IMG/VR virus record: IMGVR_UViG_3300010965_000004
Location: 44,708 to 108,707 of that record
Source: a virus
Lineage: Duplodnaviria > Heunggongvirae > Uroviricota > Caudoviricetes
DNA: 64,000 bases
Direction: 5' to 3' (one strand)
The notes under the pieces were generated by a model. The model was given only the letters and a program-made list of their open reading frames with translations, had not been told where the DNA came from and did not search any database. Position numbers and translations under genes: made by a program. Shown here in pieces: positions 47,890-64,000 of the stretch (the stretch's first letter is position 1; every line of letters starts with the position of its first letter).

Positions 47890-47907
47890 TTATTAATTGA
47901 GGTAACT

Positions 47908-48159
47908 ATGTTTCGTAAATTACTCTGCTGGCTTGGTAGTCACGGCCCCAATTGGCATGGCAACGAAAGTTGTAAAGCCAGTTCCCGCGATGGGAACGTT
48001 CCCTTCAATAGAACATGTTTGTTCTGTGGGGAAGTATGGTACGGTACCCAGGTTTATGGTCGTTATACACGCTACCTTGGGGATTGGAAAACGAAACAAC
48101 AACTGATAGCTACCGGCGAATGGAGGGAGCTTACTAAACATAAGGAGAAGCCATGTTAA
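47908..48159 (+). CDS. hypothetical Cys-containing protein
   Basis: 83-aa ORF, RBS GAGG. Confidence 0.4.
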   Translation: MFRKLLCWLGSHGPNWHGNESCKASSRDGNVPFNRTCLFCGEVWYGTQVYGRYTRYLGDWKTKQQLIATGEWRELTKHKEKPC

Positions 48160-48467
48160 AACCTGGTGACTTAGTAATGATAGTGAAACCCAGGGAATGT
48201 TGTGGTAGTACTAATACCTTGGGAGCAATACGAACAGTTTCTGACAGACTTCCCAGTGATGAAGCAATGTGCAGAACATGTGGTTTTATTAGTAAAACTG
48301 AAGGGTATATTCCCCTTAATGACAACACTGTTTGCGAGTCCAGTCGTCTCAAGAAAATCGAGCCGGGTAATGGAGTTGACGAAATAATCCGCATTGCTGG
48401 CCTTCCAAAGAAAATACCAAGGAAGAAGCTAATTTTTCACCTAGATCCTAAGAGGTTAGCCTTTTGA
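48153..48467 (+). CDS. hypothetical protein
   Basis: 104 aa, overlapping start. Confidence 0.4.
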   Translation: MLKPGDLVMIVKPRECCGSTNTLGAIRTVSDRLPSDEAMCRTCGFISKTEGYIPLNDNTVCESSRLKKIEPGNGVDEIIRIAGLPKKIPRKKLIFHLDPKRLAF

Positions 48468-49186
48468 AAATCCTGTCCAAATTCCAAGACTACTACGATT
48501 CAGCCCTGGCCTTTGGACAGGACGAAAGCATAGTCTTTAAAAGATTCAAAGAGGAATCAGAGTTAGGTAAAGATGAAAAGATTCCTTTTGATCTTCCCCT
48601 AAAATGTCCATGCAATGATCGTTGGTTTGCCGGATTTGATAAGCATTTACCCAATTGCTATCTTTCCAATTTTGTAATTGCTTTTTGTGGAAAGCTCTAT
48701 TATGGGGTAAGATTGGAATACTCCTTCATGTCAAAGGAAGGTATTACCACTTCTGAAGGTACTCAGCATTTTTACTCTAAGGAATCATTTGACAAATTCC
48801 TTTTAAGTAAAGGAGTTAAGAGTAAAGAACAAAAGAAAAGTTTTGTTCCTTTCTGGGAAAAGAAAGTTCCTTTGGGATATCTAGAAGACCAAGGATCTGA
48901 GGAGTTGAAAGAAAAGCTTATTGAAAACAAAGTCGTGGTGGCGTCTTGCATAGAACCTTCAGCTTTATATTTAGGAGGTAAAATCTTCACCCTCAACCCT
49001 CGCCTCAAAGACTTTGACTTTATCAAGATGGTTGACCCTTATACCGCCTACCAAGAACTCAGCATGTATATAGGCGGAATTTTAGCCCCAGAGTCAAAGC
49101 CAATGATTCAAGTTTCAGATAAGGATCGGGTTCAGCAACATGGATTCGATAAGTGGAGTTTCAGAAAAATGCCTGAGAAAATGTAA
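48464..49186 (+). CDS. hypothetical protein
   Basis: 240 aa, ATGA-coupled. Confidence 0.45.
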   Translation: MKILSKFQDYYDSALAFGQDESIVFKRFKEESELGKDEKIPFDLPLKCPCNDRWFAGFDKHLPNCYLSNFVIAFCGKLYYGVRLEYSFMSKEGITTSEGTQHFYSKESFDKFLLSKGVKSKEQKKSFVPFWEKKVPLGYLEDQGSEELKEKLIENKVVVASCIEPSALYLGGKIFTLNPRLKDFDFIKMVDPYTAYQELSMYIGGILAPESKPMIQVSDKDRVQQHGFDKWSFRKMPEKM

Positions 49187-49203
49187 TCTTAATTGGAGGC
49201 GCT

Positions 49204-49380
49204 ATGTTTGGCATGTTAGAAAGTTTGGCAAAAGCTGTGGTAGGGGTTGTAGTAGAAACTCCAATTGCAGTGGTTAAAGATGTGGTTACCCTTGGTGGCG
49301 CTCTCACTGACCAGGATGAGCCAAGTACTGTTACTGCTTTGAAAAAAGTGGTGAAAAACGTTGGAGACTCTACAAAATGA
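49204..49380 (+). CDS. hypothetical small protein
   Basis: 58 aa. Confidence 0.3.
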   Translation: MFGMLESLAKAVVGVVVETPIAVVKDVVTLGGALTDQDEPSTVTALKKVVKNVGDSTK

Positions 49381-49475
49381 CAGTAGAGATAATTCAAGCT
49401 ATAGGGCAATACATAATCTCACCTATTTGCGTTCTTGGTGGACTATTTGTTTTTTTCTGGTTTTTATCGAGGTAA
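49377..49475 (+). CDS. very small membrane peptide
   Basis: 32 aa, one TM helix, ATGA-coupled. Confidence 0.25.
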   Translation: MTVEIIQAIGQYIISPICVLGGLFVFFWFLSR

Positions 49476-49478
49476 TTT

Positions 49479-49814
49479 ATGGCTATCAACCCAAGACCAC
49501 CAAGACCAGAGAGTGTTCCAGATATGGCCGTGGAAGAAGTCAATGCGCCTCCCCGAGGTTCAGATTGGCCCTTCCCGGTAGGAAATCCGGTACGCAAAGC
49601 TCCCGTTAGTACCTCCGTAACGGAGACAAAAGAGTTTGCTCCCTTTAAACTTTCTCTTCTTATAAATACAGAGGAAGAAGCGAAGTTTCTAAATACCTTG
49701 GTTGCTGCTGAGTTAGTGGCATCAAAAGGCTTCGGAGGATTCTCCAGTACTAATCAGGCAAAAACAATAAAGTTGTTAAAAGAGCTACAATCCGCAATCC
49801 AAAGACATCTCTAA
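49479..49814 (+). CDS. hypothetical protein
   Basis: 111 aa, Pro-rich N-terminus. Confidence 0.4.
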   Translation: MAINPRPPRPESVPDMAVEEVNAPPRGSDWPFPVGNPVRKAPVSTSVTETKEFAPFKLSLLINTEEEAKFLNTLVAAELVASKGFGGFSSTNQAKTIKLLKELQSAIQRHL

Positions 49815-49826
49815 TCGGGGAAACAC

Positions 49827-50036
49827 ATGAAAGAACTTTTTGTTGTAAAAAATAGAAGCGGGGAAATCGTTAAAGGCGGCTTCAATCAAAAGGAAGGTGC
49901 CAAGAGATCTCGTGACCGCTTCCAAGCTGAAACCAAAGAAGGAATCCCCGACGAAAGATCCAATCACCACAACTGGTCCTTCTTCGTTGCTCCAGGAAAA
50001 GATCATCATCGTATGGAACCGAGGAGGGACTTATAA
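49827..50036 (+). CDS. hypothetical protein
   Basis: 69 aa; stop TAA is in frame with the pilin-like sequence that follows. Confidence 0.35.
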   Translation: MKELFVVKNRSGEIVKGGFNQKEGAKRSRDRFQAETKEGIPDERSNHHNWSFFVAPGKDHHRMEPRRDL

Positions 50037-50272
50037 AATCAAGACACCGAGGGTTTACTCTCATTGAACTGTTGATCGCAGTTTCTATAATAGGGATTAT
50101 AACAGCAGTAGCTATCCCTCATTTTCAAGGAAAGACTTTTGAACGGGAAGGTCCCCCAAAAAACACCGCTTTTCCTTCTTGTCAAAAAGGTTATCTATTT
50201 GTTCAAGCAGTAAGAAATGGCCCTTTAACGCAGGTTATGGGTCAAGATGGAAAACCAGAAACCTGCAACTAA
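50036..50272 (+). pseudogene. type IV pilin-like gene lacking a canonical start (class III signal motif)
   Basis: ...NQRHRG|FTLIELLIAVSIIGIITAVAIP = prepilin motif G|FTLIEL + hydrophobic helix; no ATG/GTG/TTG upstream of the motif; separated from upstream ORF by a single in-frame TAA. Confidence 0.4.
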
Positions 50273-50303
50273 CCTCAACTTCATCGTAAACAAAGGAAAT
50301 AAA

Positions 50304-51113
50304 ATGGGTAAGCTCCACGAACTCCTGGCAGTTGAAGCCAGTAACGAAGCCGCTGCAACGGCTCTCATCGGCCAAACGACTAATACCTTCAAGAGCAAGG
50401 AAAACTTGTTCAAGGGTAAGGCTCGTACTCTGCAGATGTTCGGCAAAAACGAACAGAACCAGATCGAGATGACGGCCATCGAAGCCAAGAACTACCAGAA
50501 TCTTCTGGTCTCGGCAACAATCCCCGACAGCCTGAACTACATGGCCTGTGTTCTGGCTGACTACTACGATGTGGTAGCCCAGAAGGAACTGACCAACCAG
50601 CTGGCCAAGGCTGATGTGGTTATTGATGGCAAAGTCATCATCGAAGGCGTTCCGGCCACGTTCCTGCTTGGTATGGAAACCAAGCTGAAGACTCTCCGCA
50701 ACGTGTTGGATGAAATTCCGACGATGGCTCCGGGGATGCTGTGGAAAGAGGCTACTGAAATTGGCCGGTTCATCTACAAGACGGACCCGATACGGGATAT
50801 CAAAACGGAGAAGATGACGGATCACAAAATGCTCCCGCAACCGAATCCTAACATCCCGGTTCAGTACGTTCCCATCGAGTCGTCCAAGAATGTTGGCGAG
50901 TACACCGAAGTCAACTTCACCGGCCTGATCAACTCGGCTGACAAGGCCAAGCTCATCGAGCGTCTTGACTCCCTGCTGAAGGCAGTGAAACAAGCTAGGC
51001 AACGTGCCAACAATGTTGATGCTTCGACCACCAAGGTTGGGGACAAGATGATGGGCTACCTCTTGGGTGCCTGGTATGACCGTTCCAAGATGAACGTCGA
51101 GGCGAAAGTCTAA
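50304..51113 (+). CDS. hypothetical protein, GC-rich moron
   Basis: 270 aa from ATG 50304 (RBS AAAGGAAAT). Confidence 0.45.
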   Translation: MGKLHELLAVEASNEAAATALIGQTTNTFKSKENLFKGKARTLQMFGKNEQNQIEMTAIEAKNYQNLLVSATIPDSLNYMACVLADYYDVVAQKELTNQLAKADVVIDGKVIIEGVPATFLLGMETKLKTLRNVLDEIPTMAPGMLWKEATEIGRFIYKTDPIRDIKTEKMTDHKMLPQPNPNIPVQYVPIESSKNVGEYTEVNFTGLINSADKAKLIERLDSLLKAVKQARQRANNVDASTTKVGDKMMGYLLGAWYDRSKMNVEAKV

Positions 51114-51169
51114 GATGTTCTCCCCGCTAGTCAATGGCCGATTAGCGGGGATTTTCAACAGGAGTAATC

Positions 51170-51349
51170 ATGCGATTCTTGGCTGTACCTGCTGTTATCT
51201 TAATTCTAACCTGGATCATTCTATGGTTCTGGAAAGAGTGGAGTCATGTACCAACCTGGAAAAAAATAGGGACAATTGCCGTATGTTCTCTTGGAGCTTT
51301 GCTTCTTTCCGCTGGTATCATCTTTCTCATCGTCATTGTTTTCAACTAG
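51170..51349 (+). CDS. small membrane protein (NfeD-like partner of SPFH gene)
   Basis: 59 aa, two TM helices, RBS CAGGAG; immediately upstream of SPFH gene. Confidence 0.4.
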   Translation: MRFLAVPAVILILTWIILWFWKEWSHVPTWKKIGTIAVCSLGALLLSAGIIFLIVIVFN

Positions 51350-51357
51350 GAGCTGAA

Positions 51358-52155
51358 ATGAAACGACTTTTTCTTCTTGCAGTAGCAGCATGTTTGGTTC
51401 TACTTACCGGCTGCACCCGTATCGAAACGGGGCATACCGGAGTACGAGTTTCCTTCAATGGAACCTACGAGCCAACGGAACTAGGGGTTGGGTATCACCA
51501 GACCATCATCGGCCATATCAAGGAATACGTCAGTAATGAAATGACGATTGCCTTGGATAATCTTCATCCCCAAACCAAGGATAAGTCCAATCTAGAAGAC
51601 TTGGATTTGGCCTTCACATACTCTGTGGATCCTTCCTATATCTCGGAAGCCGTCAGCAGATATAAAGGCCGGGATCTTCAAGTAGGTCAGGACACCTACC
51701 CTCTTGGTCAGTATGTTGCCAGTATAGTCCAGACTTCTATCACGGATGTCTTCAGTCATTATGATGCTTTAATGGCGAACGATAACCGCGAAAAAATCCG
51801 GGAAGAAATCAGAGCTCAAACGATAAAGCTCCTGGCTGAAGAAAAACTGGAGGGTAAAGTACGAATCCACCAGATCTTCATCAAGAATTTGCAAATTGCC
51901 AAAGCTTTACAGGCATCGGCTCAAACGGTGATCACTGCCCAGAATGATTTCAAGGCCAAGGAATTTGAAGTTCAAACGGCCAGAAAAGAAGCGGAGCGAT
52001 TGGTCCTCCTTTCGGCTAACAAAGCCAATATCGAGTACATGAACGCCAAGTCTCTCAGCGATATTGCTGAAGGTATCAAGACCGGCAAGGTTCATACCAT
52101 TGTTGTTCCGTTCGATTTCAAGGGTATCGTGAACGTTCCGAATTACGCCAAGTAA
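51358..52155 (+). CDS. SPFH/band-7 (stomatin/prohibitin-like) lipoprotein
   Basis: 265 aa; lipobox LLTGC; SPFH-like core IGHIKEYVSNEMTIALDNL..., coiled-coil C-part. Confidence 0.55.
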   Translation: MKRLFLLAVAACLVLLTGCTRIETGHTGVRVSFNGTYEPTELGVGYHQTIIGHIKEYVSNEMTIALDNLHPQTKDKSNLEDLDLAFTYSVDPSYISEAVSRYKGRDLQVGQDTYPLGQYVASIVQTSITDVFSHYDALMANDNREKIREEIRAQTIKLLAEEKLEGKVRIHQIFIKNLQIAKALQASAQTVITAQNDFKAKEFEVQTARKEAERLVLLSANKANIEYMNAKSLSDIAEGIKTGKVHTIVVPFDFKGIVNVPNYAK

Positions 52156-52201
52156 CAAGTATCCCGCTGGCCTTAGGGCTGGCGGGGTCTAAGGAGTAGA
52201 A

Positions 52202-52498
52202 ATGAAAAGAAGCACCGAAAAAACATTCTTCTGGGGATTTGCTCTTTTAATACTCGTGGCCTTCTTTATTTCAGGGTGTAGTAAACCCGCTGAAACAGTT
52301 TCATCCACTTCAAATCCTGAAGTCAATGTTGGAAAACTTTTCACTTATGATGGGTGTACCGTTTACAGGTTTGGCGATGTAGGGTACAGTCACTATTTTG
52401 TAAAATGTGAAGGGCAAAACTCAAGTACTAGTTTTAGAATGAGATATTGTGGAAAAAACTGTCGTAATCCAGAAAGCATTACAACAGAGCAGTTATAA
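52202..52498 (+). CDS. small lipoprotein
   Basis: 98 aa; signal + lipobox FFISGC; RBS TAAGGAG. Confidence 0.5.
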   Translation: MKRSTEKTFFWGFALLILVAFFISGCSKPAETVSSTSNPEVNVGKLFTYDGCTVYRFGDVGYSHYFVKCEGQNSSTSFRMRYCGKNCRNPESITTEQL

Positions 52499-52524
52499 CG
52501 AATTTAAACAAACACGCTTAGGCG

Positions 52525-52547
52525 TGGTATAAGATAATTGTGGTAGA
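52525..52547 (+). promoter_or_regulatory. conserved phage promoter
   Basis: TGGTATAAGATAATTGTGGTAGA. Confidence 0.45.
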
Positions 52548-52666
52548 TTCATCGTTGTTGTTGCTGTGACCGAGAAGGTGTATAACCCACTTTCTTTACT
52601 TAGCTTTATCGTTTTGCCACAGTAGCTTCAATAGTGTTCCAGTAATAAAAGAAGCAACTCTAAACT

Positions 52667-52764
52667 CAGATTGGTCCCTGGTTCAATCCCAGGCAAGCCC
52701 GCAAAAAGTCTTGGCAATAGCTAGGGTTTTTCGTGGGCTTGTAGCTCAGTGGTAGAGCAATTTG
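52667..52764 (+). ncRNA. tRNA-like gene 'Y' in permuted order: 3' half (anticodon 3' strand, T-arm, 3' acceptor) upstream of 5' half (acceptor, D-arm, anticodon 5' strand)
   Basis: CAGAT-TGGTC-CCTGGTTCAATCCCAGG-CAAGCCC then 33 nt then GGGCTTG-TA-GCTCAGTGGTAGAGC-A-ATTTG; acceptor 7/7 plus extra AAAAA/TTTTT pairing. Confidence 0.4.
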
Positions 52765-52810
52765 TTCACTTGTCCCCGAAGAGTTGTCTATCTAAAAACG
52801 AGGAATGCGA

Positions 52811-53023
52811 AAACTCATAAACCTGCTGGTTCGAGTCCAGCCTTCCCCACAAAGAGCCCCGCCGCCGCAGTACCCAACATCTTAGCGTTCGACCCCGGTC
52901 TATAAGACACTCCTCCAAGAGGATACCTTCGGGCTACGAGCTAAGTAACTTGAGTTTCGCCTGCGGCTGGGTTCTTTGTGGGGAAGTAGACAAATTGGTA
53001 AAGTCAACTATTATTGAAATAGT
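52811..53023 (+). ncRNA. tRNA-like gene 'X' in permuted order with 14-bp extended acceptor helix and ~120-nt structured intervening loop
   Basis: GCTGG-TTCGAGT-CCAGC-CTTCCCCACAAAGA ...120 nt... TCTTTGTGGGGAAG-TA-GAC-AAATTGGTAAA-GTC-A-ACTAT-TATTGAA-ATAGT; perfect 14-bp pairing; inner GCCGCAG/CTGCGGC helix. Confidence 0.4.
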
Positions 53024-53076
53024 CAACTATTATTGAAATAGTCAACTATTATTGAAATAGTCAATTATATGAATAG
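53003..53076 (+). repeat. 19-bp tandem direct repeat x3.9 (GTCAACTATTATTGAAATA)
   Basis: copies at 53003, 53022, 53041 + degenerate 53060; unit equals the D-stem 3' strand + anticodon stem-loop of tRNA-like X. Confidence 0.8.
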
Positions 53077-53224
53077 GGGTCCGGCCCAGGCTAGTGGTCG
53101 GATCCCGCCTAAAGCTCTCTCAACTTGCTATAGCAAGGAAATGGTACCCAAACTCCCCAGTTATGGCCCGAATATTTCAGAGAGAGCTTCAGACGGGATT
53201 AAAACTTATTCAGAAGGAGAAGAA

Positions 53225-53413
53225 ATGAATCAAGAATCTTGGGTCATCGTTTGGATTGTAGGAATGCTGTTTAGCCTTGTGTTCATTTATATGACCATAG
53301 GGTATACAGGTTTGTGTTGTATGTTTCCCGAAGGTAAACGTTGGTGGCATACCCCATCAGAGCTTCTTTCCTTATCTTTTTTTGCAGCTCTAATTCACTT
53401 TCATCCATTCTAA
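53225..53413 (+). CDS. small membrane protein
   Basis: 62 aa from ATG 53225 (RBS AAGGAG); the track's earlier 53069 start lies in a structured GC-rich leader. Confidence 0.4.
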   Translation: MNQESWVIVWIVGMLFSLVFIYMTIGYTGLCCMFPEGKRWWHTPSELLSLSFFAALIHFHPF

Positions 53414-53422
53414 AGGACTATT

Positions 53423-53638
53423 ATGTGCCGTCAATCAAAAAATCGTAAACAAGCAGCTCGTTCCAAACAGGCTCGTGGTGAGAAGGCAAGACAGCACTTT
53501 GCTGAAGGCCAGGCTCACATGAAATGTCCACACCAACAAGTGGCCCCGTGCTGGCTGGTACCAAATACCAAGAAACGCAGCTGGTGGAACAAGAAAGCTC
53601 CGTCAGTAACTCGTCGTGATCTTGGTCTGAGCGACTGA
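53423..53638 (+). CDS. small basic protein, GC-rich
   Basis: 71 aa, Lys/Arg-rich. Confidence 0.35.
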   Translation: MCRQSKNRKQAARSKQARGEKARQHFAEGQAHMKCPHQQVAPCWLVPNTKKRSWWNKKAPSVTRRDLGLSD

Positions 53639-53640
53639 TC

Positions 53641-53949
53641 ATGAAACCCTTGTCCAAGATGCACCGAAGGGTTCTGGATAAGAAAAACGGGCTTAACGTT
53701 AGTTCTCTTGTGCCCCCAAAATACAAGATTACTGCTGGCAAAGGTAAAAAGGGAAGAAACTGTAACGTTACTGCCTGCCAGCAGTTAGGTGCTACGTGGT
53801 ATAATCGAGTTATGAAAGCTTGGTATTGTCCACGTTGCGCTCGGGAAATAAATCTCTGGTCGGTTAAAGATGGTCATGGAGAAATCTGTGCCCTTGATCC
53901 AGAAGCAGAGGTTATCTACGACGCAGAGCCAGAAGAAGTAATCACATAG
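53641..53949 (+). CDS. zinc-ribbon protein
   Basis: 102 aa; CNVTAC...CPRCAREI...GEICALD Cys clusters; ATGA-coupled. Confidence 0.4.
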   Translation: MKPLSKMHRRVLDKKNGLNVSSLVPPKYKITAGKGKKGRNCNVTACQQLGATWYNRVMKAWYCPRCAREINLWSVKDGHGEICALDPEAEVIYDAEPEEVIT

Positions 53950-53956
53950 TAACCGA

Positions 53957-54046
53957 GCGGGTGTGGCAGAGCCTGGTTTATTGCACCTGCCTTCCAAGCA
54001 GGAGGTGTTAACTCATCCACGAGTTCGAATCTCGTCACCCGCTCCA
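53957..54046 (+). tRNA. type II tRNA with anticodon loop CTTCCAA (anticodon UCC by position); identity uncertain, Sec/Ser-like architecture
   Basis: GCGGGTG/CACCCGC acceptor, 3-4 bp D-stem with long loop, CCTGC-CTTCCAA-GCAGG, 16-nt variable arm, ACGAGTTCGAATCTCGT, U73 + CCA; loop differs by one base from tRNA-Sec CTTCAAA. Confidence 0.45.
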
Positions 54047-54062
54047 CCAAACAAGGAAGAGT

Positions 54063-54260
54063 ATGAATTTCTTTTTAATAAGCCTAGTTATTATCCTGGC
54101 TGGCAGTGGGTTTTTGTATTGGCGCTACACAAAGGCTACCCAATTAACCAGGGATGCTTTATGGGAAATGATGGAGATTAGTGTTGTAGCATTAGTTTCG
54201 CTGAGTGTAGGTATTTTACTCATTATGAACATAATTCACTTTTTCAGAGGTATTTCATGA
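54063..54260 (+). CDS. small membrane protein
   Basis: 65 aa, two TM helices. Confidence 0.4.
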   Translation: MNFFLISLVIILAGSGFLYWRYTKATQLTRDALWEMMEISVVALVSLSVGILLIMNIIHFFRGIS

Positions 54261-54844
54261 AACGAACTTTGCTTTTCCTCGTAGTTTGTATCTCAATGTT
54301 CCTCTCTGGCTGTGGCTACAACAGCTTCCAAACCAAGGACGAACAAATCAATGCGGCTTGGGCCGAAGTTGTAAACCAGTACCAACGTCGTATGGACTTG
54401 ATTCCGAACCTCGTGGCTGTCGTTGAAAAATACGCTTCCCATGAAAAGGATACGTTCGTTGGTCTTGCTGCTGCCAGAGCTTCGGCTAGTGCGGTGCAAG
54501 TAACCCCAGCTTTGATGAACGATCTTACCGCCTTCAAGAAGTTCCAGGCTGCTCAAGGTGAAATCGGCCAATTCCTTTCCCGTTTGATGGTGGTCAAGGA
54601 ACAATACCCAGAACTGAAAGCAGACAAACGGTTTGCTGAACTCCAGGCCCAGCTTGAAGGTGCGGAAAATCGTATCACAATTGCACGTAACCGGTACATC
54701 AAATCTGTGCAGGAATACAACATACAGATTCGTCAGTTTCCAACCAATCTGACAGCTATGGTGTTCAGCTACGAAGCCAAACCTCAATTTACAGTCGAAA
54801 ATGAAAAGCAGATCTCGACTGCACCTAAGGTCCAATTCAAATGA
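54257..54844 (+). CDS. lemA: LemA-family protein
   Basis: 195 aa; N-terminal TM/lipobox (LSGCGYNSFQ); ...INAAWAEVVNQYQRRMDLIPNLVAVVEKYASHEKDTF... typical LemA. Confidence 0.6.
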   Translation: MKRTLLFLVVCISMFLSGCGYNSFQTKDEQINAAWAEVVNQYQRRMDLIPNLVAVVEKYASHEKDTFVGLAAARASASAVQVTPALMNDLTAFKKFQAAQGEIGQFLSRLMVVKEQYPELKADKRFAELQAQLEGAENRITIARNRYIKSVQEYNIQIRQFPTNLTAMVFSYEAKPQFTVENEKQISTAPKVQFK

Positions 54845-55875
54845 AAAGACTACAACGTATCTTTGTAGCATTCTGTGTAGTATACACAATGCTATACTTT
54901 ACTGGCGTTGTTGCTAGTAAAGCGGTTATCCCATCCAAGCCTTCTGTCGGCTACGTCCTTGACCAAACCGGCACTTTGACTCAGGCTGAGATTCAGAAGA
55001 TCAACTCTGTGGCTAACGTCTTAGAAACTTCCAAAAAGGTTTCGATGGCTACTCTTATTATCTCCACTACCAATGGGGAAGCAATCGAGCAGTATGCTCA
55101 TCGTGTAGCCGAGAAGTGGAAGCCAGGAATTGATGGGGTCGGCAAAGGTGCCCTCCTTGTTATTGCCAAAGCTGACCGGAAATTCAGGGTGGAAGTGTCA
55201 AGAAACCTTGAAGGGGAATGGCCTGATGGTGCTATCAAAAATGTCCTTGATTCAAACAAGAAGTATTTCAAGGATGGAAAATTTGGTGATGGTATCGTGG
55301 CCGTTATCTCAGCTCTGACAGCCAGGGCTGAGGCACCAGCTCCTGCAGCTGTGGCAGTAGCCTCAGCCGATGAAGGAGTTGATCCTTTGTGGTGGGTTGG
55401 TCTTTTCAGCGTTATTCTCATAGCTTGTATCCTTGTGTACCATTTCTGGACCAAGGCACAAGAGGAAAAACGCCGTGAAGAACAGGAAGCTGCTGATCGT
55501 AAATGGCAAATGGACTTGGAAGCAATGAGAAAACAACGGAAAATAGCGGAGCAACGGGAATTGATACAAACAACTTCCACTCCATATGTCAGCCCGACAG
55601 CCAGGCCAAATATCAGAGTAACCCCAAGCACTTTGGTTGCAGCTGCTGCGGTTGCTGGATTGGCTGGGGCTGCTATCAGTAAGCCAAAGCCAAAACCTGC
55701 TCCGGTGCGGAGATCAGAACCAGAGCCTGAGCCGTATCGCTCGTCGTATCGCTCGTCTTCTTCTGATGACTCCAGTTCGAGATCATCGTCCTCATCGTCT
55801 TCTGATTCCAGCTCTTTCTCCAGCTCGTCGTCTTCGGACTATAGTGGTGGTGGCAGTAGCAGCAGTTTCGACTAA
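54841..55875 (+). CDS. TPM-domain (TLP18.3/Psb32/MOLO-1) protein with TM segment and Ser-rich tail
   Basis: 344 aa; GYVLDQTGTLTQAEIQKIN...GALLVIAKADRKFRVEVSRNLEGEWPD = TPM domain; ATGA-coupled to lemA; C-terminal poly-Ser. Confidence 0.6.
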   Translation: MKRLQRIFVAFCVVYTMLYFTGVVASKAVIPSKPSVGYVLDQTGTLTQAEIQKINSVANVLETSKKVSMATLIISTTNGEAIEQYAHRVAEKWKPGIDGVGKGALLVIAKADRKFRVEVSRNLEGEWPDGAIKNVLDSNKKYFKDGKFGDGIVAVISALTARAEAPAPAAVAVASADEGVDPLWWVGLFSVILIACILVYHFWTKAQEEKRREEQEAADRKWQMDLEAMRKQRKIAEQRELIQTTSTPYVSPTARPNIRVTPSTLVAAAAVAGLAGAAISKPKPKPAPVRRSEPEPEPYRSSYRSSSSDDSSSRSSSSSSSDSSSFSSSSSSDYSGGGSSSSFD

Positions 55876-55884
55876 GTAGTTATA

Positions 55885-55911
55885 AAGGGGGATTCACTTC
55901 TCCCTTTTTTT
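55885..55911 (+). terminator. rho-independent terminator
   Basis: AAGGGGGA-TTCACTTC-TCCCTTT + TTTTT. Confidence 0.6.
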
Positions 55912-55921
55912 ACCCAAAACC

Positions 55922-55945
55922 TGGTATAAGTAAGTTGTAGAAGTA
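55922..55945 (+). promoter_or_regulatory. conserved phage promoter
   Basis: AAAACCTGGTATAAGTAAGTTGTAGAAG; RBS AAGGAGCCAGTTATG. Confidence 0.5.
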
Positions 55946-55967
55946 ATCATTTACTAAGGAGCCAGTT

Positions 55968-56192
55968 ATGAATGTTTCTGTGACTACTGTAGATATTTCA
56001 AAAGCCGGAGAGCAATTAAGTCGAGCTTTCCGAGAGCAAGAACTACAAAGAAAAGAGCAGCTCCTAAAGGGTAAACTCTACCGAAAAAAACAAGAAAGAA
56101 TGAGGCTGGAAAATGAAATCCCCATTCTGGAAAGAGAACATATTGCAATTCTCTTTGTGATGAACAGAGAAGGAATTACCGTAAGGAGTTGA
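55968..56192 (+). CDS. hypothetical coiled-coil protein
   Basis: 74-aa ORF. Confidence 0.4.
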   Translation: MNVSVTTVDISKAGEQLSRAFREQELQRKEQLLKGKLYRKKQERMRLENEIPILEREHIAILFVMNREGITVRS

Positions 56193-56202
56193 TTGATTTT
56201 AA

Positions 56203-56228
56203 AGCCAGGATTCTCTGGCTTTTTTTAT
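56203..56228 (+). terminator. rho-independent terminator
   Basis: AGCCAGG-ATTCT-CTGGCT + TTTTTTT. Confidence 0.6.
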
Positions 56229-56240
56229 AGGTGAACAACC

Positions 56241-56951
56241 ATGAAACTAATAGATTTAACTAATGAAACATTTGGAAGTTGGAAAGTAATAAAACGAGGA
56301 ACCGATCTAAATCAAAAACCAACCTGGATTTGTAAATGTGCTTGTGGGGTAGAAAAAGAAGTTCTAAGTAGATCCTTGAGAAGAGGGAGTTCTACCTCCT
56401 GTGGATGTTCCAAAGCCATAGATATGACAGGGATAAAGATGGGAAGGCTACTTATCTTAAATAGATCAGGCTCTTTGGTTAATTCTTTAGGTGAAAAAGA
56501 AGCAGCATTATGGAATTGTAAATGTGACTGTGGAAAAGAAACTGTAGTTTCCGGGAATGATCTACGTAGTGGCCACACTAAGTCTTGTGGGTGCTTACAA
56601 AGAGATACTGCCGCTTCTTCTAAAACAACAAGCGGACAATACCTAGCCGGAGAAATGAGTCCAGCCAGAAGTGAAGATCTTAGAACTTGGAGATCTTGGA
56701 TTTCTATGTTACGCAGATGTTATAGCTCCTATAGTAATAGATACAAATATTATGGGGAAAGAGGTATTACCGTATGTGATAGATGGAACCCGCAAAAAGG
56801 AGGAACTTTTTTAAATTTTCTTTCCGATATGGGAACTCGCCCAATAGATAAAACCCTAGATAGAAAAAACGTAAATTCTAATTATGAGAAGTCTAATTGT
56901 AGATGGGCTACTAATAAAGAACAGGCTAATAATAAAAGGAAAAGTACATGA
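56241..56951 (+). CDS. Cys-repeat (zinc-ribbon repeat) protein, possibly endonuclease-associated
   Basis: 236 aa; repeated W.CKC.CG.E..V modules; YYGERGITVCDRW. Confidence 0.4.
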   Translation: MKLIDLTNETFGSWKVIKRGTDLNQKPTWICKCACGVEKEVLSRSLRRGSSTSCGCSKAIDMTGIKMGRLLILNRSGSLVNSLGEKEAALWNCKCDCGKETVVSGNDLRSGHTKSCGCLQRDTAASSKTTSGQYLAGEMSPARSEDLRTWRSWISMLRRCYSSYSNRYKYYGERGITVCDRWNPQKGGTFLNFLSDMGTRPIDKTLDRKNVNSNYEKSNCRWATNKEQANNKRKST

Positions 56952-58573
56952 GTTCTATCTTAGATCATTCCCCTCTACCAACTATACGAAATTCCCAACG
57001 GGAAGTACTTAAAGCCATAGAAAAAGCATACGGGGAAGGGTATAGAAATGTACTTTTAGAAATGAGTGTTGGTGGTGGGAAAAGTTTCGTGGCAGTAGCT
57101 GCGGCTAAATACTATAAGACAGCCCATATACTAACTCCTCGTAAAAGTTTACAGGACCAGTATTCAGAAGATTTCCGTTCACACCAAGTGGTGCTAATGA
57201 AGGGGAGATCCTCTTACCCTTGTACTTACCCTTCCGCAGATTACAACAAAGCTTTACACAAGCATGTTACTGATGAAATCCGTACAGGGGGAATAGTGCA
57301 GCCTACAGGAACAGAGTTATCCTGTGCAGAGGGTCCTTGCCTGGCTTCCAGGGTGGCTATAGCTCCCTGTACGGGGTTTCCTTTACCAGGAGAGGCAGCT
57401 AAGTACCCTTGCCCATATCACGTTGCTATAGACGTGGCTCAGTCCCACAAGATAATCGTGCACAACCTTCATTCCTTCATTTTCCAAGCCTACTTCACGG
57501 GAAGGTTTGATCAGAGAGAATTAATAGTTATTGACGAGTGCCATGAAATGGAAGGAATTGTTAGGGGATTCGCTTCCAAGAAAGTCTCTATCCCAAAGGT
57601 AATAAAGGATGAAGACATGCCTTTACCCGGAGTCCATAAAACGTTAGAGAGTTGGTCTGAATGGTTTACCCAGTTCAGGAATTTGTTCAAGACTAAGTTA
57701 GACCAATTTGGGGTTAGTGAACAAGAGCGATTTGAGGAACTGTTGCAAGAGCTATGTGACTTGTCAGATCAGTTTGGAGAGAAGTTTGTTTGTGCCATTG
57801 AAAAAGATACACTAAGTAAGAGAACTAAGTTTACCTTCACTCCAGAACAGGTTGGTAACCTTACTAATAAGTTTATGTTGAACTTTGGTAAGAAGCGCTT
57901 GCTTATGTCAGGGACAATTTACAACAAATCTTTATATTGTAAAAACAATGGGTTAGACGAAGAAGAAACTTGTTTCATTAGAATAGGATCCAGCTTTCCA
58001 AAAGCTAACAGACCTATTTACTTTAAAGATGAATACAAAGTTGACACTTCTCATAAACTCTGGGATCAGAATTTCAATGAGATGATCACAAAGATCAAGT
58101 CTATTATGACCATCTTTGATGATGCTAAAGGTCTTATCCACACCCCTTCCTACTTGGCGTCTATTATGTTGAATAACGCCTTAAGAAGTACGGGTAGAAT
58201 GGTTACTCACACTAAAGATGACTTCAACCAAGTGCTACAACAGTTTTATGCTTGTGAAGAGCCCAAAGTTCTTCTTTCCCCTACCTGTCAACAAGGCGTT
58301 GATTTTAACTATGACAGAGCCAGGTTTCAGATCATCTTAAGAGTTCCATACCTCAATACCTCTGACCCCTTTGTGGAGCATAAGGTAAAGAACGATTTCC
58401 CTTGGTACAACTATCAAGCTCTGGTTACTTTTGGTCAAGAGATTGGCCGTATTAACAGAGCTGATGATGATTATGGGGTAACGATTTTAATGGATGAAAG
58501 GTTTGGTAAGTTCATTTCCAAGAATAGGAATGTTCTACCAAAATGGTTAATAGAAGCAATTATTTATAAGTGA
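56948..58573 (+). CDS. SF2 DEAD/DEAH-box helicase, Rad3/XPD/DinG-like with putative Fe-S Cys cluster
   Basis: 541 aa; LEMSVGGGKS (Walker A), VIDECHEMEG (DExH), four Cys between motifs I and II. Confidence 0.55.
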   Translation: MSSILDHSPLPTIRNSQREVLKAIEKAYGEGYRNVLLEMSVGGGKSFVAVAAAKYYKTAHILTPRKSLQDQYSEDFRSHQVVLMKGRSSYPCTYPSADYNKALHKHVTDEIRTGGIVQPTGTELSCAEGPCLASRVAIAPCTGFPLPGEAAKYPCPYHVAIDVAQSHKIIVHNLHSFIFQAYFTGRFDQRELIVIDECHEMEGIVRGFASKKVSIPKVIKDEDMPLPGVHKTLESWSEWFTQFRNLFKTKLDQFGVSEQERFEELLQELCDLSDQFGEKFVCAIEKDTLSKRTKFTFTPEQVGNLTNKFMLNFGKKRLLMSGTIYNKSLYCKNNGLDEEETCFIRIGSSFPKANRPIYFKDEYKVDTSHKLWDQNFNEMITKIKSIMTIFDDAKGLIHTPSYLASIMLNNALRSTGRMVTHTKDDFNQVLQQFYACEEPKVLLSPTCQQGVDFNYDRARFQIILRVPYLNTSDPFVEHKVKNDFPWYNYQALVTFGQEIGRINRADDDYGVTILMDERFGKFISKNRNVLPKWLIEAIIYK

Positions 58574-58935
58574 AAAACATGGACTTAAACGTTTTGGAAG
58601 TTGAGTTGGAGATAGCTAGAAAGATCTTCTGGTTATTAAAAAACGATTATATCTTCTTGACTGAATATAATCACGGAAAAGAGGGCTGGGATGATGGTGC
58701 TTACCCTGCCATAAACTGCAATGATATTTTTGTTCCAGGAGCTCACTCTCAGAATTTACCAGCAGAGGACTTGGACAAATACATTGACTGTGTAAAGAAG
58801 TTTCCTGAGTATGGCCAGTATGCCTGGTGTGGATTTAAGCTTAATGCAAATCCTTGGCGTTGGACGGAAGCCCAAAAGAAAAATCCGGAATATTACAAAG
58901 CCCTTCAGTACTTAAAGGATAAATATGATAACTAA
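58570..58935 (+). CDS. hypothetical protein
   Basis: 121 aa. Confidence 0.4.
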   Translation: MKNMDLNVLEVELEIARKIFWLLKNDYIFLTEYNHGKEGWDDGAYPAINCNDIFVPGAHSQNLPAEDLDKYIDCVKKFPEYGQYAWCGFKLNANPWRWTEAQKKNPEYYKALQYLKDKYDN

Positions 58936-59094
58936 AACACTAAGAGATGAGTTTGCTATGACAGCTCTGATAGGAATGACTAATGTGGGGATTTCCCCTC
59001 AGTCTATGGGGCATGTAGCAAAAACATGTTATGAAATGGCGGATGCCATGATGAAAGCTAGGGAAAAAGACTTTTGTACAAGGGAGCCTGATTG
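58924..59094 (+). CDS. hypothetical small protein
   Basis: 56 aa. Confidence 0.3.
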
Positions 59095-59304
59095 AAAGTA
59101 CAGATAGTAACCAACAATAAGGGTGAGGGTGACTACTTCTATATCTTCTTAGATAATAAACAAATAGAGTCAGGCCACTCTTTAAGTATGTACCATTGGT
59201 CGGAGGTACTTAAAAGAATCCAAGGATACAGAGAAGTTGAATACAAAGATTTAACTGATGAAGAGTTTGAGGCATGGCAACTTGAACTTGAAAACTCTTT
59301 TTAA
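59092..59304 (+). CDS. hypothetical protein
   Basis: 70 aa, TTG start. Confidence 0.3.
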   Translation: MKVQIVTNNKGEGDYFYIFLDNKQIESGHSLSMYHWSEVLKRIQGYREVEYKDLTDEEFEAWQLELENSF

Positions 59305-59321
59305 ACAACCGCCTCCCCTTC

Positions 59322-59345
59322 TGGTATAAGGATAAGGTAAAGGCT
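59322..59345 (+). promoter_or_regulatory. conserved phage promoter
   Basis: TGGTATAAGGATAAGGTAAAGG. Confidence 0.45.
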
Positions 59346-59398
59346 TAGCAGCCACTTCAATTTAACCTAATTACCAGGGGAGGTTATAGGTAGATGAT

Positions 59399-60229
59399 AT
59401 GGAAAAAAGCAGTCCAGTAGTAGCATTTGAACAAGGAGAGCTAGACTGCAAGCCTATCTATTTAGGATTTTGCGGTAAAGAATCCTCGTATTGGTTTTAT
59501 GCATTAAAGCAGGGGGTGCCTAGATTTCTCAAGTATGTTAGTTATTTTCATTGGGATCGTGGGCCACAAGAAGTTCTCAGTATGAAGCCTCTACCTTTGG
59601 AGGTGGAATCCGAATTAAAACAATTTCTAGAAGGAGTGCTTGGATATGAATTCAAGAAGCGAAGAAAGAACAGCAGAGATAGCGAGGCCTTTAGGGTCTT
59701 CCGAAGTCCCGGTGACATTAGTCAAGACTTGCAAGACAAGAAGCCTAAGCGTCCTGCCAGGACACAGGGAATTCAGAGCGATTCAGCTCGAGGAGGATCA
59801 AACGAAGTTGTTGGATGTCCTTCCGTCGATCCCGCTCCTGGACGAGAGATTTCACGAAGCCCACTCGGTCCAAGACGAGAGTCCAAACGACGTGGACATG
59901 CAGTGTCTGTTGGGAATGCCCCCAAGGGGATTGTACCACCCCCTGACGTATCGATAAAAGAGGTTCTGCCAGTACCCCAACCTCTTGTTCCACCTGAACC
60001 AAAGAGGCGTGGCAGACCTCCTAAGAAACAAGAGGTTTCTATTGTTCCAACCATCGTTTCCAGTAACGTGGTTGTAACGGAAATCCAGGAACCGCAACAT
60101 GTTAAACGTAAATACACACGCAAACCAAAACCTGATGGACTGGAATTGGGGAGCGTGGGACTACTGATTCCTCAACCGGAGTTAGTTATTAAGAAAACCA
60201 GAGGCAGACCTAGATTGGTTAAGCCATAG
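59399..60229 (+). CDS. AT-hook-containing basic Pro-rich protein, GC-rich moron
   Basis: 276 aa; KRRGRPPKK and TRGRPRL AT-hook-like motifs. Confidence 0.45.
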   Translation: MEKSSPVVAFEQGELDCKPIYLGFCGKESSYWFYALKQGVPRFLKYVSYFHWDRGPQEVLSMKPLPLEVESELKQFLEGVLGYEFKKRRKNSRDSEAFRVFRSPGDISQDLQDKKPKRPARTQGIQSDSARGGSNEVVGCPSVDPAPGREISRSPLGPRRESKRRGHAVSVGNAPKGIVPPPDVSIKEVLPVPQPLVPPEPKRRGRPPKKQEVSIVPTIVSSNVVVTEIQEPQHVKRKYTRKPKPDGLELGSVGLLIPQPELVIKKTRGRPRLVKP

Positions 60230-60301
60230 TTTTCAAAAAGGGGCTGGCGGAAACTGGATGAAACCATTCCCCCTTTTTTAGTCTATACAAGGATTCGTTT
60301 A

Positions 60302-60325
60302 TGGTATAAGGTTGATAGAGGGTAG
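60302..60325 (+). promoter_or_regulatory. conserved phage promoter
   Basis: TGGTATAAGGTTGATAGAGGG; RBS AAGGAGCCAACATG. Confidence 0.5.
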
Positions 60326-60358
60326 GGCCCTATCTTCTAAAACCTTTAAGGAGCCAAC

Positions 60359-61246
60359 ATGAACGCAAGAGCACAAACTCCCAGGCCACTGAAAATTTTC
60401 TGGACCACACGGGAAGTAAACGAAGTAGTGGCTAAAGCCGCCGAGCTTATTATGGCAGGCAATCCTCCTTTATATAGTGGGGAGATTGCGTATGGGCAAG
60501 TAGTCTTACAAGCTCAGAGTTTCTTGCCAGTTGAACGGCGTCGTCCCCACAACAGTATCAGCTCAAACACTACTATCTTCAAACGGTTAATTGCAACCGA
60601 GATTGACCGAGTAACCGAGGCCAACAAGAGGGCAGTCCAAGAGGCACATGCTGCTGAAGAAGCTGCGGCTGATGTTGCTGCGATAACCCAAGATACAGAG
60701 TCTGCTCCCCCCATTCGTAGTCTGTCTTTGACAGAGCTTCATACACAGTTGGTTTCGTCCATTGAGCAAATGGGTCAAGTCTACAAGGACTTGTTCATTG
60801 CAACTATGCTCAAGGCTGCGTCTGAAGGTTTCAACGAGGTGAATGACTCTATCAAATCCGTCACAGCCACCTTACCAAAGGGACCAATCACCATCCATGC
60901 CCACCAGGAAGTATCGGCCTTTGGTACAGTCCCACGGGGCGCGGTTGAGGTTAAAGCCCACCGGGAAAAGATCATAATTCTCGGAGGTAATGAAAAAGGG
61001 GCCGAACACGTTGTGATCGAAAATGGGTTGGATGATGTCTATAAAATCTCTTATGAAGATGATAGCAGCGTAGATAAAGCTGCTTTGGCCGGTGCAGATC
61101 ACATTGTTGTTAGAGTAAGGTTCTGTTCCCACAGCAAGGTAACTGCTCTACTTAGCACGGTTCCTAAAGACAAGGTTAAATTCATTGAGAGTACATCAGC
61201 TCAGAAAGTAAATGACCATTTGCTGGAGAGATTCGCCAGCATCTAG
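60359..61246 (+). CDS. hypothetical protein
   Basis: 295 aa. Confidence 0.45.
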   Translation: MNARAQTPRPLKIFWTTREVNEVVAKAAELIMAGNPPLYSGEIAYGQVVLQAQSFLPVERRRPHNSISSNTTIFKRLIATEIDRVTEANKRAVQEAHAAEEAAADVAAITQDTESAPPIRSLSLTELHTQLVSSIEQMGQVYKDLFIATMLKAASEGFNEVNDSIKSVTATLPKGPITIHAHQEVSAFGTVPRGAVEVKAHREKIIILGGNEKGAEHVVIENGLDDVYKISYEDDSSVDKAALAGADHIVVRVRFCSHSKVTALLSTVPKDKVKFIESTSAQKVNDHLLERFASI

Positions 61247-61260
61247 ATCGTACTAGAAGC

Positions 61261-62049
61261 CTACCTACCCAGGTAAGCTTCTTTTTTACCCAACTTCTCC
61301 CGTAACATGGCAAGACCTTCAGTTTTAATTCGTTGTATGTCTTCTTTTGGTATTTTCAAAGCTTTTGCCATCTTAGCGGGAGAATGTTCGGAATCGTCTT
61401 CTAGGCCGAAACACCTAGCTACTACTTCTCTGTGAGGTGAAGGTAAAGAAGCTACTGCCTTCCAAACCTTGTTATCATCCATTTGTTTTTGGAGTGTTTC
61501 TCCAATTGGATCAATTTCAAATTCGTTTTCGTCTAAGTCATCTATGTAGTAAGTTAGATAACGAGTAGTATAAAGCTCTTTTACATCCTTCTTTGGAACT
61601 TCAGGAAACTCTGCACAAACTTCTTCCAAAGTCATCTTTTCATTGTTGTCGATTAGTCTCTGTATTCTGGATGCTAACTGCTGTTTCCAGATAGGTAAAG
61701 AGACTATTCTCATCATAGACATAGTCTTCAAAATACGTTGATTTACCCACCAACCAGCATAAGATAAGAACCTTACTTCTCGGGAGAAATTGAACTTGTT
61801 AAACCCTACTACTAAACCTTCATTAGCCGCTGATATAAGGTCAGCAAACATGCCTGGATCGTTTCTAGAATACTTCTTTGCTTGATTGAATGCGAACCTT
61901 AAATTAGCTTTGATAATACGGTCCTTAATACGTTCCTTTTCTTTTTCAGTAGTAGTCTTATTAGTGTATTTTTCGAATAAAGAATACTCTTCTTCCTTTT
62001 TTAAGATTGGATGTTTGCATATTGAAGCATAATATAGGGAGAGGTCCAT
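61261..62049 (-). CDS. sigma-70 family RNA polymerase sigma factor
   Basis: 262 aa; RFLSYAGWWVNQRILKTM = region 2.4-like; C-terminal region-4-like HTH. Confidence 0.55.
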   Translation of the reverse strand: MDLSLYYASICKHPILKKEEEYSLFEKYTNKTTTEKEKERIKDRIIKANLRFAFNQAKKYSRNDPGMFADLISAANEGLVVGFNKFNFSREVRFLSYAGWWVNQRILKTMSMMRIVSLPIWKQQLASRIQRLIDNNEKMTLEEVCAEFPEVPKKDVKELYTTRYLTYYIDDLDENEFEIDPIGETLQKQMDDNKVWKAVASLPSPHREVVARCFGLEDDSEHSPAKMAKALKIPKEDIQRIKTEGLAMLREKLGKKEAYLGR

Positions 62050-62144
62050 AATTTGTCTTTCTTGTCAAGTACTTATACTACGTATTTGAAGTAGTTTAAT
62101 TTCTATTTTTAATTTTGTCAAGTATATAATAAAACTACTTTCTT

Positions 62145-62170
62145 TGGTATAAGAAATATGGTATAATATT
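62145..62170 (+). promoter_or_regulatory. tandem extended -10 promoters (TGGTATAAG and TGGTATAAT)
   Basis: TGGTATAAG 62145-62153 and perfect TGGTATAAT 62159-62167 upstream of gene 62225. Confidence 0.5.
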
Positions 62171-62224
62171 TATAATAAAAAAACTAAAATATAAATATAT
62201 AACCTGTAAATTTGAGGAAAGCAT

Positions 62225-63145
62225 ATGACAATAAAAACTCTTCTTTGCCCCGTTTGTAAAAAAGAATTTACTAAGTACGTAAAACCCGAAATCAAAATAA
62301 GTTTCTGTTCTAAGGAATGCCACTGGGAATATAAACGAGGTAAACCATTGACCGAAATCCATCGTAAAAATTTAGTTTCTAGAAAAGGATCAAAGGTTTC
62401 CATAGAGACAAAATTAAAAATGAGTAATTCTCACAAACAAAGATTTTTAAATAATCCCCATCTTTTGAAAGAAAGAAGTTTACAAACTAAACAAAGATAT
62501 TTAGATAATCCTGAACTACGCATTATTTCCGGAAATATTAATCGCGGCAAATCTTTAACAAACGAACATAGAACAAAAATTGGAAAATCTAATTCCGGTA
62601 AAACACGAACTAAAGATTGTAAAGAAAAGATGAAAAATTTAGCAAAGGAAAGATACACTAAAGACCCCTCCCTAAAAGAAAAAATTAGATCAACAAATGA
62701 AGCAATAGGTAGATACAAATCTTTAAAGGAACTTACTAGTATTGAAATTTTTTATAGAGAAGCTAATTGGGTAAGACGGATGTTTGAACTTATAGAGGAT
62801 AAAACTTCTTCCTCTAAATTATCCGATTTAGGGGTTTTCAATCCTAAAAAGAATACAAAAGGGGTTGTGCGGGACCATATATACCCCAGAAAACTAGGAT
62901 ATATTAAAGGAGTCTTCCCAGAAATACTTAGACACCCATGCAACTGTAAATTAATTTCTAATATTGAAAACATAACCAAAAAGGATCATACAATACTAGA
63001 TGAGTCTAACCAATCTTTAGAAGAGCTTTTTTCAAAAATAGAAACCTATTCTAAGGATTGGTTTGAACAAAAAGTTGTTCTTGAACTTATAAATAAATAT
63101 AGGTTAGGAGAACGTTGGATTGATAAATATAAGGAAATAAAATGA
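62225..63145 (+). CDS. HNH-type homing endonuclease with NUMOD3-like DNA-binding repeats
   Basis: 306 aa; three KGSK.S.ETK.KMS..HK-type repeats; C-terminal DHIYPRKLGY...HPCNCKLISN HNH-like. Confidence 0.5.
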   Translation: MTIKTLLCPVCKKEFTKYVKPEIKISFCSKECHWEYKRGKPLTEIHRKNLVSRKGSKVSIETKLKMSNSHKQRFLNNPHLLKERSLQTKQRYLDNPELRIISGNINRGKSLTNEHRTKIGKSNSGKTRTKDCKEKMKNLAKERYTKDPSLKEKIRSTNEAIGRYKSLKELTSIEIFYREANWVRRMFELIEDKTSSSKLSDLGVFNPKKNTKGVVRDHIYPRKLGYIKGVFPEILRHPCNCKLISNIENITKKDHTILDESNQSLEELFSKIETYSKDWFEQKVVLELINKYRLGERWIDKYKEIK

Positions 63146-63242
63146 ATAAAGGAAATATGTCCGAGGTGTTCTTCACCTCGGACTCCTAGCTCACTTTGGG
63201 CACAGCAACATAATTAAGTATTGTAATAGGCCATTCACTTCC

Positions 63243-63727
63243 ATAAAAGAAATGGACGAAATCTTAATCGAAAACTGGAATAGTGTAGTTAAACCTAAAG
63301 ATACTATATACCATCTAGGAGACGTTAGCTGGTATGGATCAGATACCACAAATACGATTTTTAAGCAGTTAAACGGACATAAACACCTGATCCTAGGCAA
63401 CCATGACCACTTGAAAAACCTTTCTCCTTACTTTGAAACTATCACTGATTACAGGCTAATCAAGGTTCAAACTCTGCCTATTGTCCTTTTTCATTATCCC
63501 ATTCTATCCTGGAATCTACAGAATCATGGATCGCTTCATTTACATGGCCATACCCACGATACAATAGACAATTGTGGAATCCTTAGATTTGATGTTGGAG
63601 TTGATTCTTGGAACATGAAACCAGTTAATTTAGAACAAATAATTAATCTTATTCCAACAAGATTAGCTCAAAATCCTAGTAAGCTTCAACGTCCTGTTGA
63701 AAAGTTTGATGCTATGTATAAAATTAT
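63243..63727 (+). CDS. calcineurin-like metallophosphoesterase; reading frame continues without stop into GC-rich sequence
   Basis: HLGDVSW, LGNHDH, LHLHGHTHD metallophosphatase motifs; AT-rich phage codon usage up to ~63727. Confidence 0.5.
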
Positions 63728-64000
63728 TGGTGAGATAAGAGTGACCACAGTGCGTCCTGCAAACCTAGAACAACTCAAAGCCATCGAGACAGCAGCGGCT
63801 GCGCATGGACCTGCACGTATCTTGATGCAAATCGCCGGCATCGGCACCGCCAAGCGTGTGGTGGGCAAAGACGGCAATGCTGCGCCATTAGAAGACTTCA
63901 TCAAAGTGGTCAATGTCAACTTGGTGGGCACCTACAACGCAGCGCGTTTATTTGCTGCAGCAGCCGCCAAGCTCGACCCACTCGAAGACGGTGAGCGTGG
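63728..64000 (+). CDS. fragment of bacterial SDR (3-hydroxyacyl-CoA dehydrogenase-like), fused in frame, runs off window
   Basis: ~62% GC; LMQIAGIGTAKRVV...LEDFIKVVNVNLVGTYNAARL matches the SDR NAGI...VNLxGxF region; lacks the N-terminal Rossmann motif. Confidence 0.45.

Follow-up and report, generated by a model that had tools for sequence, protein, structure and literature searches.

A probable chimeric contig end joining a phage metallophosphoesterase gene to an internal fragment of a Comamonadaceae dehydrogenase gene

At the right end of the window (the whole 64,000-nt stretch of DNA analysed here), the body of a phage metallophosphoesterase (MPE) gene gives way to the interior of a bacterial short-chain dehydrogenase (SDR) gene, with a short segment of other sequence between them. 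The locus thus has three parts and two breakpoints:

up to 63722: phage DNA, by its identity to the Logan contig ERR2583788_4318 (L001)
63157 to 63189, + strand: short ORF MSEVFFTSDS*, the expected MPE N-terminus, out of frame with the body of the gene
63180 to 63722, + strand: body of the phage MPE gene, by translation, Pfam and the match to L001
63722/63723: breakpoint 1; the window equals L001 up to 63722 and is unrelated to it from 63723
63723 to 63776, + strand: orphan 54-nt segment of 18 codons (IIGEIRVTTVRPANLEQL; GC 0.44, GC3 0.33), neither the phage continuation nor SDR
63776/63777: breakpoint 2, the sharp onset of bacterial SDR homology
63777 to 64000, + strand: internal fragment of an SDR gene, from codon 66 to about codon 140 of 254, in frame with the MPE gene and ending at the window edge

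The frame that starts at 63144 contains no stop from 63150 to 64000, and its translation runs through the MPE motifs and on to ...KAIETAAAAHGPARILMQIAGIGTAKRVVGKDGNAAPLEDFIKVVNVNLVGTYNAARLFAAAAAKLDPLEDGER; the statement of the first-pass annotation that the frame stays open across the junction therefore holds. The same annotation had placed a single switch at ~63728. The change is indeed abrupt, but it is spread over two sites, and the second is marked by the SDR alignments, which begin at 63776-63780 in 36 of 39 among the best-scoring loci listed, regardless of their divergence, and at 63792 in the rest. We found no repeat at the breakpoint in the phage that might explain a misjoin, and saw no k-mer common to the two sides at the junction. 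The junction sequence had no exact match in viral_contigs (IMG/VR), metagenome_contigs (JGI metagenomes) or genome_contigs (GTDB genomes), and the phage-side (left) pattern had no exact match in IMG/VR. A 10-nt inverted match (63635-63644 / 63722-63731), considered as a possible trace of a fold-back chimera, has no extension and was taken as chance.

Base composition changes across the junction as well. Measured per 100 nt, GC lies between 0.31 and 0.34 over 63550-63749 and between 0.53 and 0.58 beyond it, and the SDR part, 63777-64000, has a GC of 0.576 against 0.405 for 1-63722. The shift from ~35% to ~62% that had been reported is thus confirmed as a break, with its right-hand figure corrected to ~58%. 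Within 1-63722, just 0.26% of 224-nt windows are as GC-rich as 63777-64000. However, the comparison of GC profiles on the two sides that the first-pass annotation had proposed as a check reveals a step that is not unique to this site: the jump of 0.27 at ~63738 ranks fourth largest across the window, and two other stretches (12937-13244 and 34143-34629) equal the window end in GC, reaching up to 0.60, yet are phage ORFs without a Pfam match. GC spikes alone are therefore no sign of foreign DNA in this phage, and composition alone is suggestive rather than decisive. The ORF at 12716-13177, which overlaps the first of these stretches, resembles a small membrane or secreted protein.

The 54-nt orphan segment resembles the equivalent stretch of 158 SDR loci only at the random level (mean identity 23%, maximum 31%), and close SDR orthologues have a mean pairwise nucleotide identity of 83% across these same positions (codons 48-65). 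No second copy of the 54-mer with three or fewer mismatches occurs in the window, and short-word BLAST against the window and the fetched loci (~0.8 Mb from the surroundings of the SDR gene in Comamonadaceae, plus ~30 kb of additional phage DNA) returned nothing, as did searches for the 54-mer in IMG/VR (exact) and among GenBank phages (distant mode). A protein word search with the orphan gave no candidates, a weak negative because the index also missed proteins certain to share words with the query. To our knowledge the segment bears no convincing likeness to Nextera, TruSeq, ONT or PacBio adapters. Its GC3 is like that of the phage, so that it may come from the beginning of a minor variant branch of the phage. 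Two short matches in this region were taken as chance: the 15-mer at 63768-63782 matches the neighbouring thiolase gene, on the opposite strand, in many loci but has no extension, and the 7-mer ATTGGTG (63726-63732), although in SDR register, sits within an overall in-register identity of 23-31%.

The translated right side matches SDR proteins of Rhodoferax, Hydrogenophaga, Rubrivivax and other Burkholderiales. SDR scans of species-representative genomes and metagenomes returned 160 loci, with the Comamonadaceae MAG Jr-11may16-116 as the best genome match (96% at the amino acid level), many genome matches in Limnohabitans, and 99% amino acid identity to the fragment in the best metagenome contigs. 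At the DNA level the best identity was 90.6% (locus L092); none of the collections searched contained the allele at 100% identity, and a plasmid database search with the SDR part gave no match. Compared with its 16 closest metagenomic or MAG orthologues, the fragment is 96-99% identical in amino acids and 85-90.5% in nucleotides, and differs by 19-29 synonymous and 1-3 nonsynonymous codons, which equals the distance from one orthologue to another. GC3 is 0.60 in the fragment and 0.31 in the MPE gene. Judged from these comparisons, the right side is an ordinary bacterial allele of an unsampled relative, not one evolved inside the phage, and its SDR a Comamonadaceae, Limnohabitans-like enzyme of the 3-hydroxyacyl-CoA dehydrogenase type. 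A search with the right part alone, as the first-pass annotation had advised, accordingly recovers a common bacterial gene fragment.

The native gene is seen in L092, where an SDR of 254 codons lies in an acyl-CoA synthetase / thiolase / SDR / ABC binding-protein cluster and codon 66 corresponds to window position 63777. The TGxxxGxG NAD(P)-binding motif (LVTGGGSGLG, residues 9-18, in the orthologues) is absent from the window SDR, whose preceding residues are those of MPE and the orphan linker; the SDR part had already been described as lacking its N-terminal Rossmann motif, correctly so, with homology starting only at codon 66. Also absent is the acidic residue that closes beta-strand 2/3 (NVSD/CDVT) and holds the adenosine in place: the orthologues have EIGGVAVSCNVSDPESMA where the window has IIGEIRVTTVRPANLEQL, and the native order is ...EIGGVAVSCNVSDPESMA followed by AAAGCCATCGAGACAGCAGCGGCT. 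The NNAG-type motif, of which ILMQIAGIG is this SDR family's variant, and the central helix (ILMQIAGIG ... NVNLVGTYN) are present and 96-99% identical to the closest orthologues. The catalytic Ser ... YxxxK would fall beyond 64000 (the equivalent in L092 is ...SVAAF...YSASK). Since the fragment starts inside the Rossmann fold, without TGxxxGxG and without the NVSD strand, it could not fold or work as an SDR. No Pfam adh_short match was reported on the fused ORF at E<=0.01, because just a fragment of the domain is present.

On the phage side, the MPE translation reads ..GLLAHFGHSNIIKYCNRPF..GD..GNHD..GHTH.., with the motif HFGHSNIIKYCNRPF also in frame and the first in-frame ATG of the body at 63252. 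The GD (HLGDVS), GNHD (LGNHDH) and GHTH motifs are present, and DxH is split by a frame change at 63183-63189. In Pfam, the window ORF scores just below the cut-offs (Metallophos_2, E=5e-5, 23.8 vs 27; Metallophos, E=7e-4, 20.4 vs 21.5), whereas the gene in L001 scores just above (Metallophos, 22.4 vs 21.5). Four relatives in IMG/VR, with 38-39% amino acid identity, have alignments confined to MPE residues 1-146 and are uninformative on the junction. The N-terminus of the gene is split (63157-63195), since ..LLAHFGH.. lies in the -1 frame relative to MSEVFFTSDS*, and the frame change interrupts the DxH metal motif; removal of 5 nt (TCCTA) would restore a canonical SDAHFGH. The beginning of the short ORF coincides in part with a perfect 10-bp hairpin (63159-63183). 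Because L001 carries the identical split, a random assembly error is improbable there, and the split start may reflect a pseudogene, a frameshift or some regulatory feature.

The sequence of the window comes from a large freshwater phage of lytic type, for which megablast with 58000-64000 and with 50000-63722 found no match among GenBank phages. Multisubunit RNA polymerase beta/beta'-like genes, split and carrying Rpb2_6, Rpb1_1/2 and Rpb1_5 domains, occupy 446-9935 on the - strand, and an HNH gene (2344-2949) lies near them. Twenty-two tRNA genes, all on the + strand and with small ORFs between them, lie in 34548-54046 and serve every amino acid but Asn; weak additional tRNA-like Rfam matches occur at 47477-47542 and 52735-52849. 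A permuted (two-piece type) tmRNA at 31178-31579 (Rfam RF04321, 116 bits; ARAGORN) may hint at the host lineage, and its tag, AANDSSFAQVRLAA, presumably resembles alphaproteobacterial tags. A group I intron (35823-36090; Rfam RF00028, 74.5 bits) adjoins or overlaps an HNH_3 endonuclease ORF (35233-35973). Also encoded are ribonucleotide reductase, thymidylate synthase, SNF2 and DEAD-type helicases, and further HNH and GIY-YIG genes. The thymidylate synthase ORF is just 194 aa long (19065-19649) and is followed by a GIY-YIG / I-TevI-like endonuclease (~19775-20461), so the gene may be split or invaded by a homing endonuclease. A T4 Rnl1-type RNA ligase, an AAA_33 kinase, a HAD/PNKP phosphatase and a second RNA ligase (PHA02142 OB domain + RNA_ligase), found in 21947-23994 and 28745-29866, resemble, as a group, a toolkit for tRNA repair in a phage with many tRNA genes. 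At 59399-60229, a 276-aa Pro/Lys/Arg-rich ORF with RGRP AT-hook-like motifs (..KRRGRPPKK.., ..KTRGRPRLVKP) encodes a product that may bind DNA.

Closer to the junction, a sigma factor gene (61261-62049) is followed by an AT-rich island (62000-63150, GC 0.13-0.32) that holds a 306-aa ORF with repeated NUMOD3-like motifs (62225-63145; Pfam E=0.0053, below the cut-off), which probably encodes a homing endonuclease of the free-standing kind and would have inserted between the genes for the sigma factor and MPE. There is no integrase among these neighbours of the junction, and no integrase or recombinase family appears in the Pfam lists for 1-12269, ~17.8-31.3 kb and 41115-64000 (~49 kb, with 12.3-17.8 and 31.3-41.1 kb outside the lists) and for 30 kb of flanking sequence. 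Gene content of this kind, with a multisubunit RNA polymerase, 22 tRNAs, a tmRNA and genes for tRNA repair and nucleotide metabolism, is what one expects of a lytic jumbo phage.

Contigs of the same phage were found in the Logan runs ERR2583788 and ERR2583787 through exact protein look-ups. ERR2583788_453 (62,445 bp) is 100% equal to window 1-12269 and reaches 9.5 kb past the left window edge, ERR2583788_5828 is 100% equal to 41115-53031, and positions 1-10688 of L001 (31,322 bp, two samples) correspond to 53035-63722 with 1 mismatch in 10,688 nt. That mismatch, at 62181, lies just upstream of the NUMOD3-like ORF. The matches and the left extension indicate that the window is a tile within a longer phage sequence. 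The one site at which the Logan phage contigs (k=31) break is a 19-nt tandem repeat (53002-53068; AGTCAACTATTATTGAAAT, 3.5 copies). Past the breakpoint, L001 continues as phage DNA with GC unchanged (0.34-0.44): its MPE gene reaches its own stop after 22 more codons (..FDAMYKRAIKDGNSNLTKMEFLDVNEQ*), the next phage gene overlaps it in typical phage packing, and a second Metallophos gene and genes for guanylate kinase, a PDDEXK_1 (PD-(D/E)XK) nuclease and a DnaG/Toprim primase lie downstream. That L001 is unbroken at the site suggests that neither run holds a well-supported alternative branch. The two runs have adjacent accessions and yield an identical contig, and are thus not fully independent of each other; they may also share data with the source of the window.

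We consider it probable that the last 278 bases owe their place in the window to a chimeric or concatenated contig end, which joins phage sequence to a piece of a bacterial gene, and that they encode no real fusion protein. A large freshwater phage contig would have been fused with a piece of the chromosome of a Comamonadaceae bacterium present alongside the phage, whether by contig-end mis-assembly, because of a chimeric tip or read, or when two contigs of one bin were concatenated. The 54-nt orphan would then be contig-end sequence that is chimeric or of low quality, or else the opening bases of a branch, from a minor variant of the phage, at which the assembler strayed from the true path, and the open frame across both junctions would be a coincidence, with no MPE-SDR fusion protein made. 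We infer that the join arose in silico or in library preparation and not in a cell. What favours this explanation is that a Logan contig present in two runs carries the uninterrupted phage version, that the junction is absent from the three collections searched, that both genes are cut at arbitrary internal positions, that the bacterial part is untouched in composition and evolution, and that a segment of no detectable origin separates the parts. Continuity of the frame has a chance of ~1/3 (frame) x ~0.4 (18 stop-free codons) and is therefore weak evidence for a real fusion. On the other side of the balance, de Bruijn chimeras usually arise at a shared k-mer, and none is visible here; the 54-nt filler can be accommodated only by assuming, in addition, a variant branch or a chimeric read; the Logan runs are not fully independent and may share data with the source of the window; and the SDR allele has no 100% match, the best being 90.6% in nucleotides.

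The first-pass annotation had offered a chimera, a prophage/host junction and a recent recombination as its options, and the chimera is the best supported of the three. Its recombination option would have a phage subpopulation swap the 3' end of the MPE gene for host DNA by illegitimate end-joining, with the 54 nt as filler; the break may have been stimulated by any of the numerous homing endonucleases of the phage, and the capture would be very recent and non-functional. Such an event would account for several features of the locus: both junctions lie in an open frame, filler DNA at junctions is known from illegitimate recombination, the NUMOD3-like candidate lies immediately upstream in a phage with more HNH and GIY-YIG genes, and host-like GC with near-synonymous-only divergence is what very recent capture would leave. 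Nevertheless, we regard it as unlikely, as the Logan contig of two runs is uninterrupted phage with no branch and none of the three collections contains the junction. The captured fragment, starting at codon 66, would be non-functional, the phage GC of 0.40 is ~19 points under that of the donor lineage, and the tmRNA tag, which we take to be alphaproteobacterial-like, does not indicate a Comamonadaceae host.

If the phage were instead integrated in a Comamonadaceae SDR gene, the junction would be an attR and the Logan contig the circular or replicative attP form. Continuity at attP in one assembly, together with a phage-bacterium junction in another, is indeed the pattern of a temperate phage, and the 3' part of the SDR gene reads away from the phage. 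However, the phage continuation and the bacterial side share no common core sequence, phage identity ending at 63722, and the bacterial flank is not native, as the 54 nt beside the phage are unlike the highly conserved SDR codons 48-65. In addition, the breakpoint falls within the MPE coding sequence and a 19-point GC gap separates the phage from the putative host. The RNA polymerase genes, the 22 tRNAs, the tmRNA and the tRNA-repair and nucleotide-metabolism genes of a jumbo phage, with no integrase or recombinase in the Pfam-annotated stretches, likewise argue against a prophage end. The prophage junction is thus very improbable and close to refuted. Least probable of all is a native, functional MPE-SDR fusion or an auxiliary metabolic gene of the phage, for which the open reading frame is the one argument. 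Neither the NAD-binding TGxxxGxG region nor the conserved NVSD strand is present in the SDR part, whose composition is bacterial with no adaptation to the phage; the MPE is deprived of its native C-terminus, and the Logan contig of the same phage has no fusion. The missing N-terminal half of the SDR fold effectively refutes this reading; the earlier judgement that this is not a native fusion is supported by the bacterial nature of the fragment and by the phage contig running past the breakpoint.

On present evidence, then, the junction is most likely not real as a biological feature. The main value of the result lies in quality control: taken at face value, the join would yield a false MPE-SDR fusion, a false auxiliary metabolic gene of a jumbo phage and a false link to a Comamonadaceae host, and everything from 63723 on is best cut off or marked before the window is annotated or used to predict a host. 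Were the junction true, it would be modestly interesting, as a snapshot of the recent capture of host DNA (part of a Limnohabitans-like 3-hydroxyacyl-CoA dehydrogenase gene) by an uncultured freshwater jumbo phage, and as a direct host link for that phage.

Among known systems, a prophage attR resembles the locus in setting phage DNA against a disrupted bacterial gene, but the window has no att core, no nearby integrase and no native bacterial flank, and the free form of the phage does not end there in an att-like manner. Host-gene capture by phages (morons, auxiliary metabolic genes) likewise places bacterial-type sequence beside phage genes; captured genes are, however, normally complete and adapted in composition, whereas the fragment here is truncated, unadapted and absent from the Logan contig. 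Residues 66 to ~140 are like those of the thiolase-linked fatty-acid-oxidation SDR of Comamonadaceae (96-99% identical, ILMQIAGIG included), but unlike in the intact gene, codons 1-65 are replaced by unrelated sequence and phage DNA stands in place of the thiolase gene. Finally, although the junction differs from the usual mis-joined metagenome contig ends in having no shared k-mer and a 54-nt segment between its parts, it is like them in that composition, taxonomy and codon usage switch within a few bases, both genes are cut internally, and the join is not reproduced in another assembly of the population.
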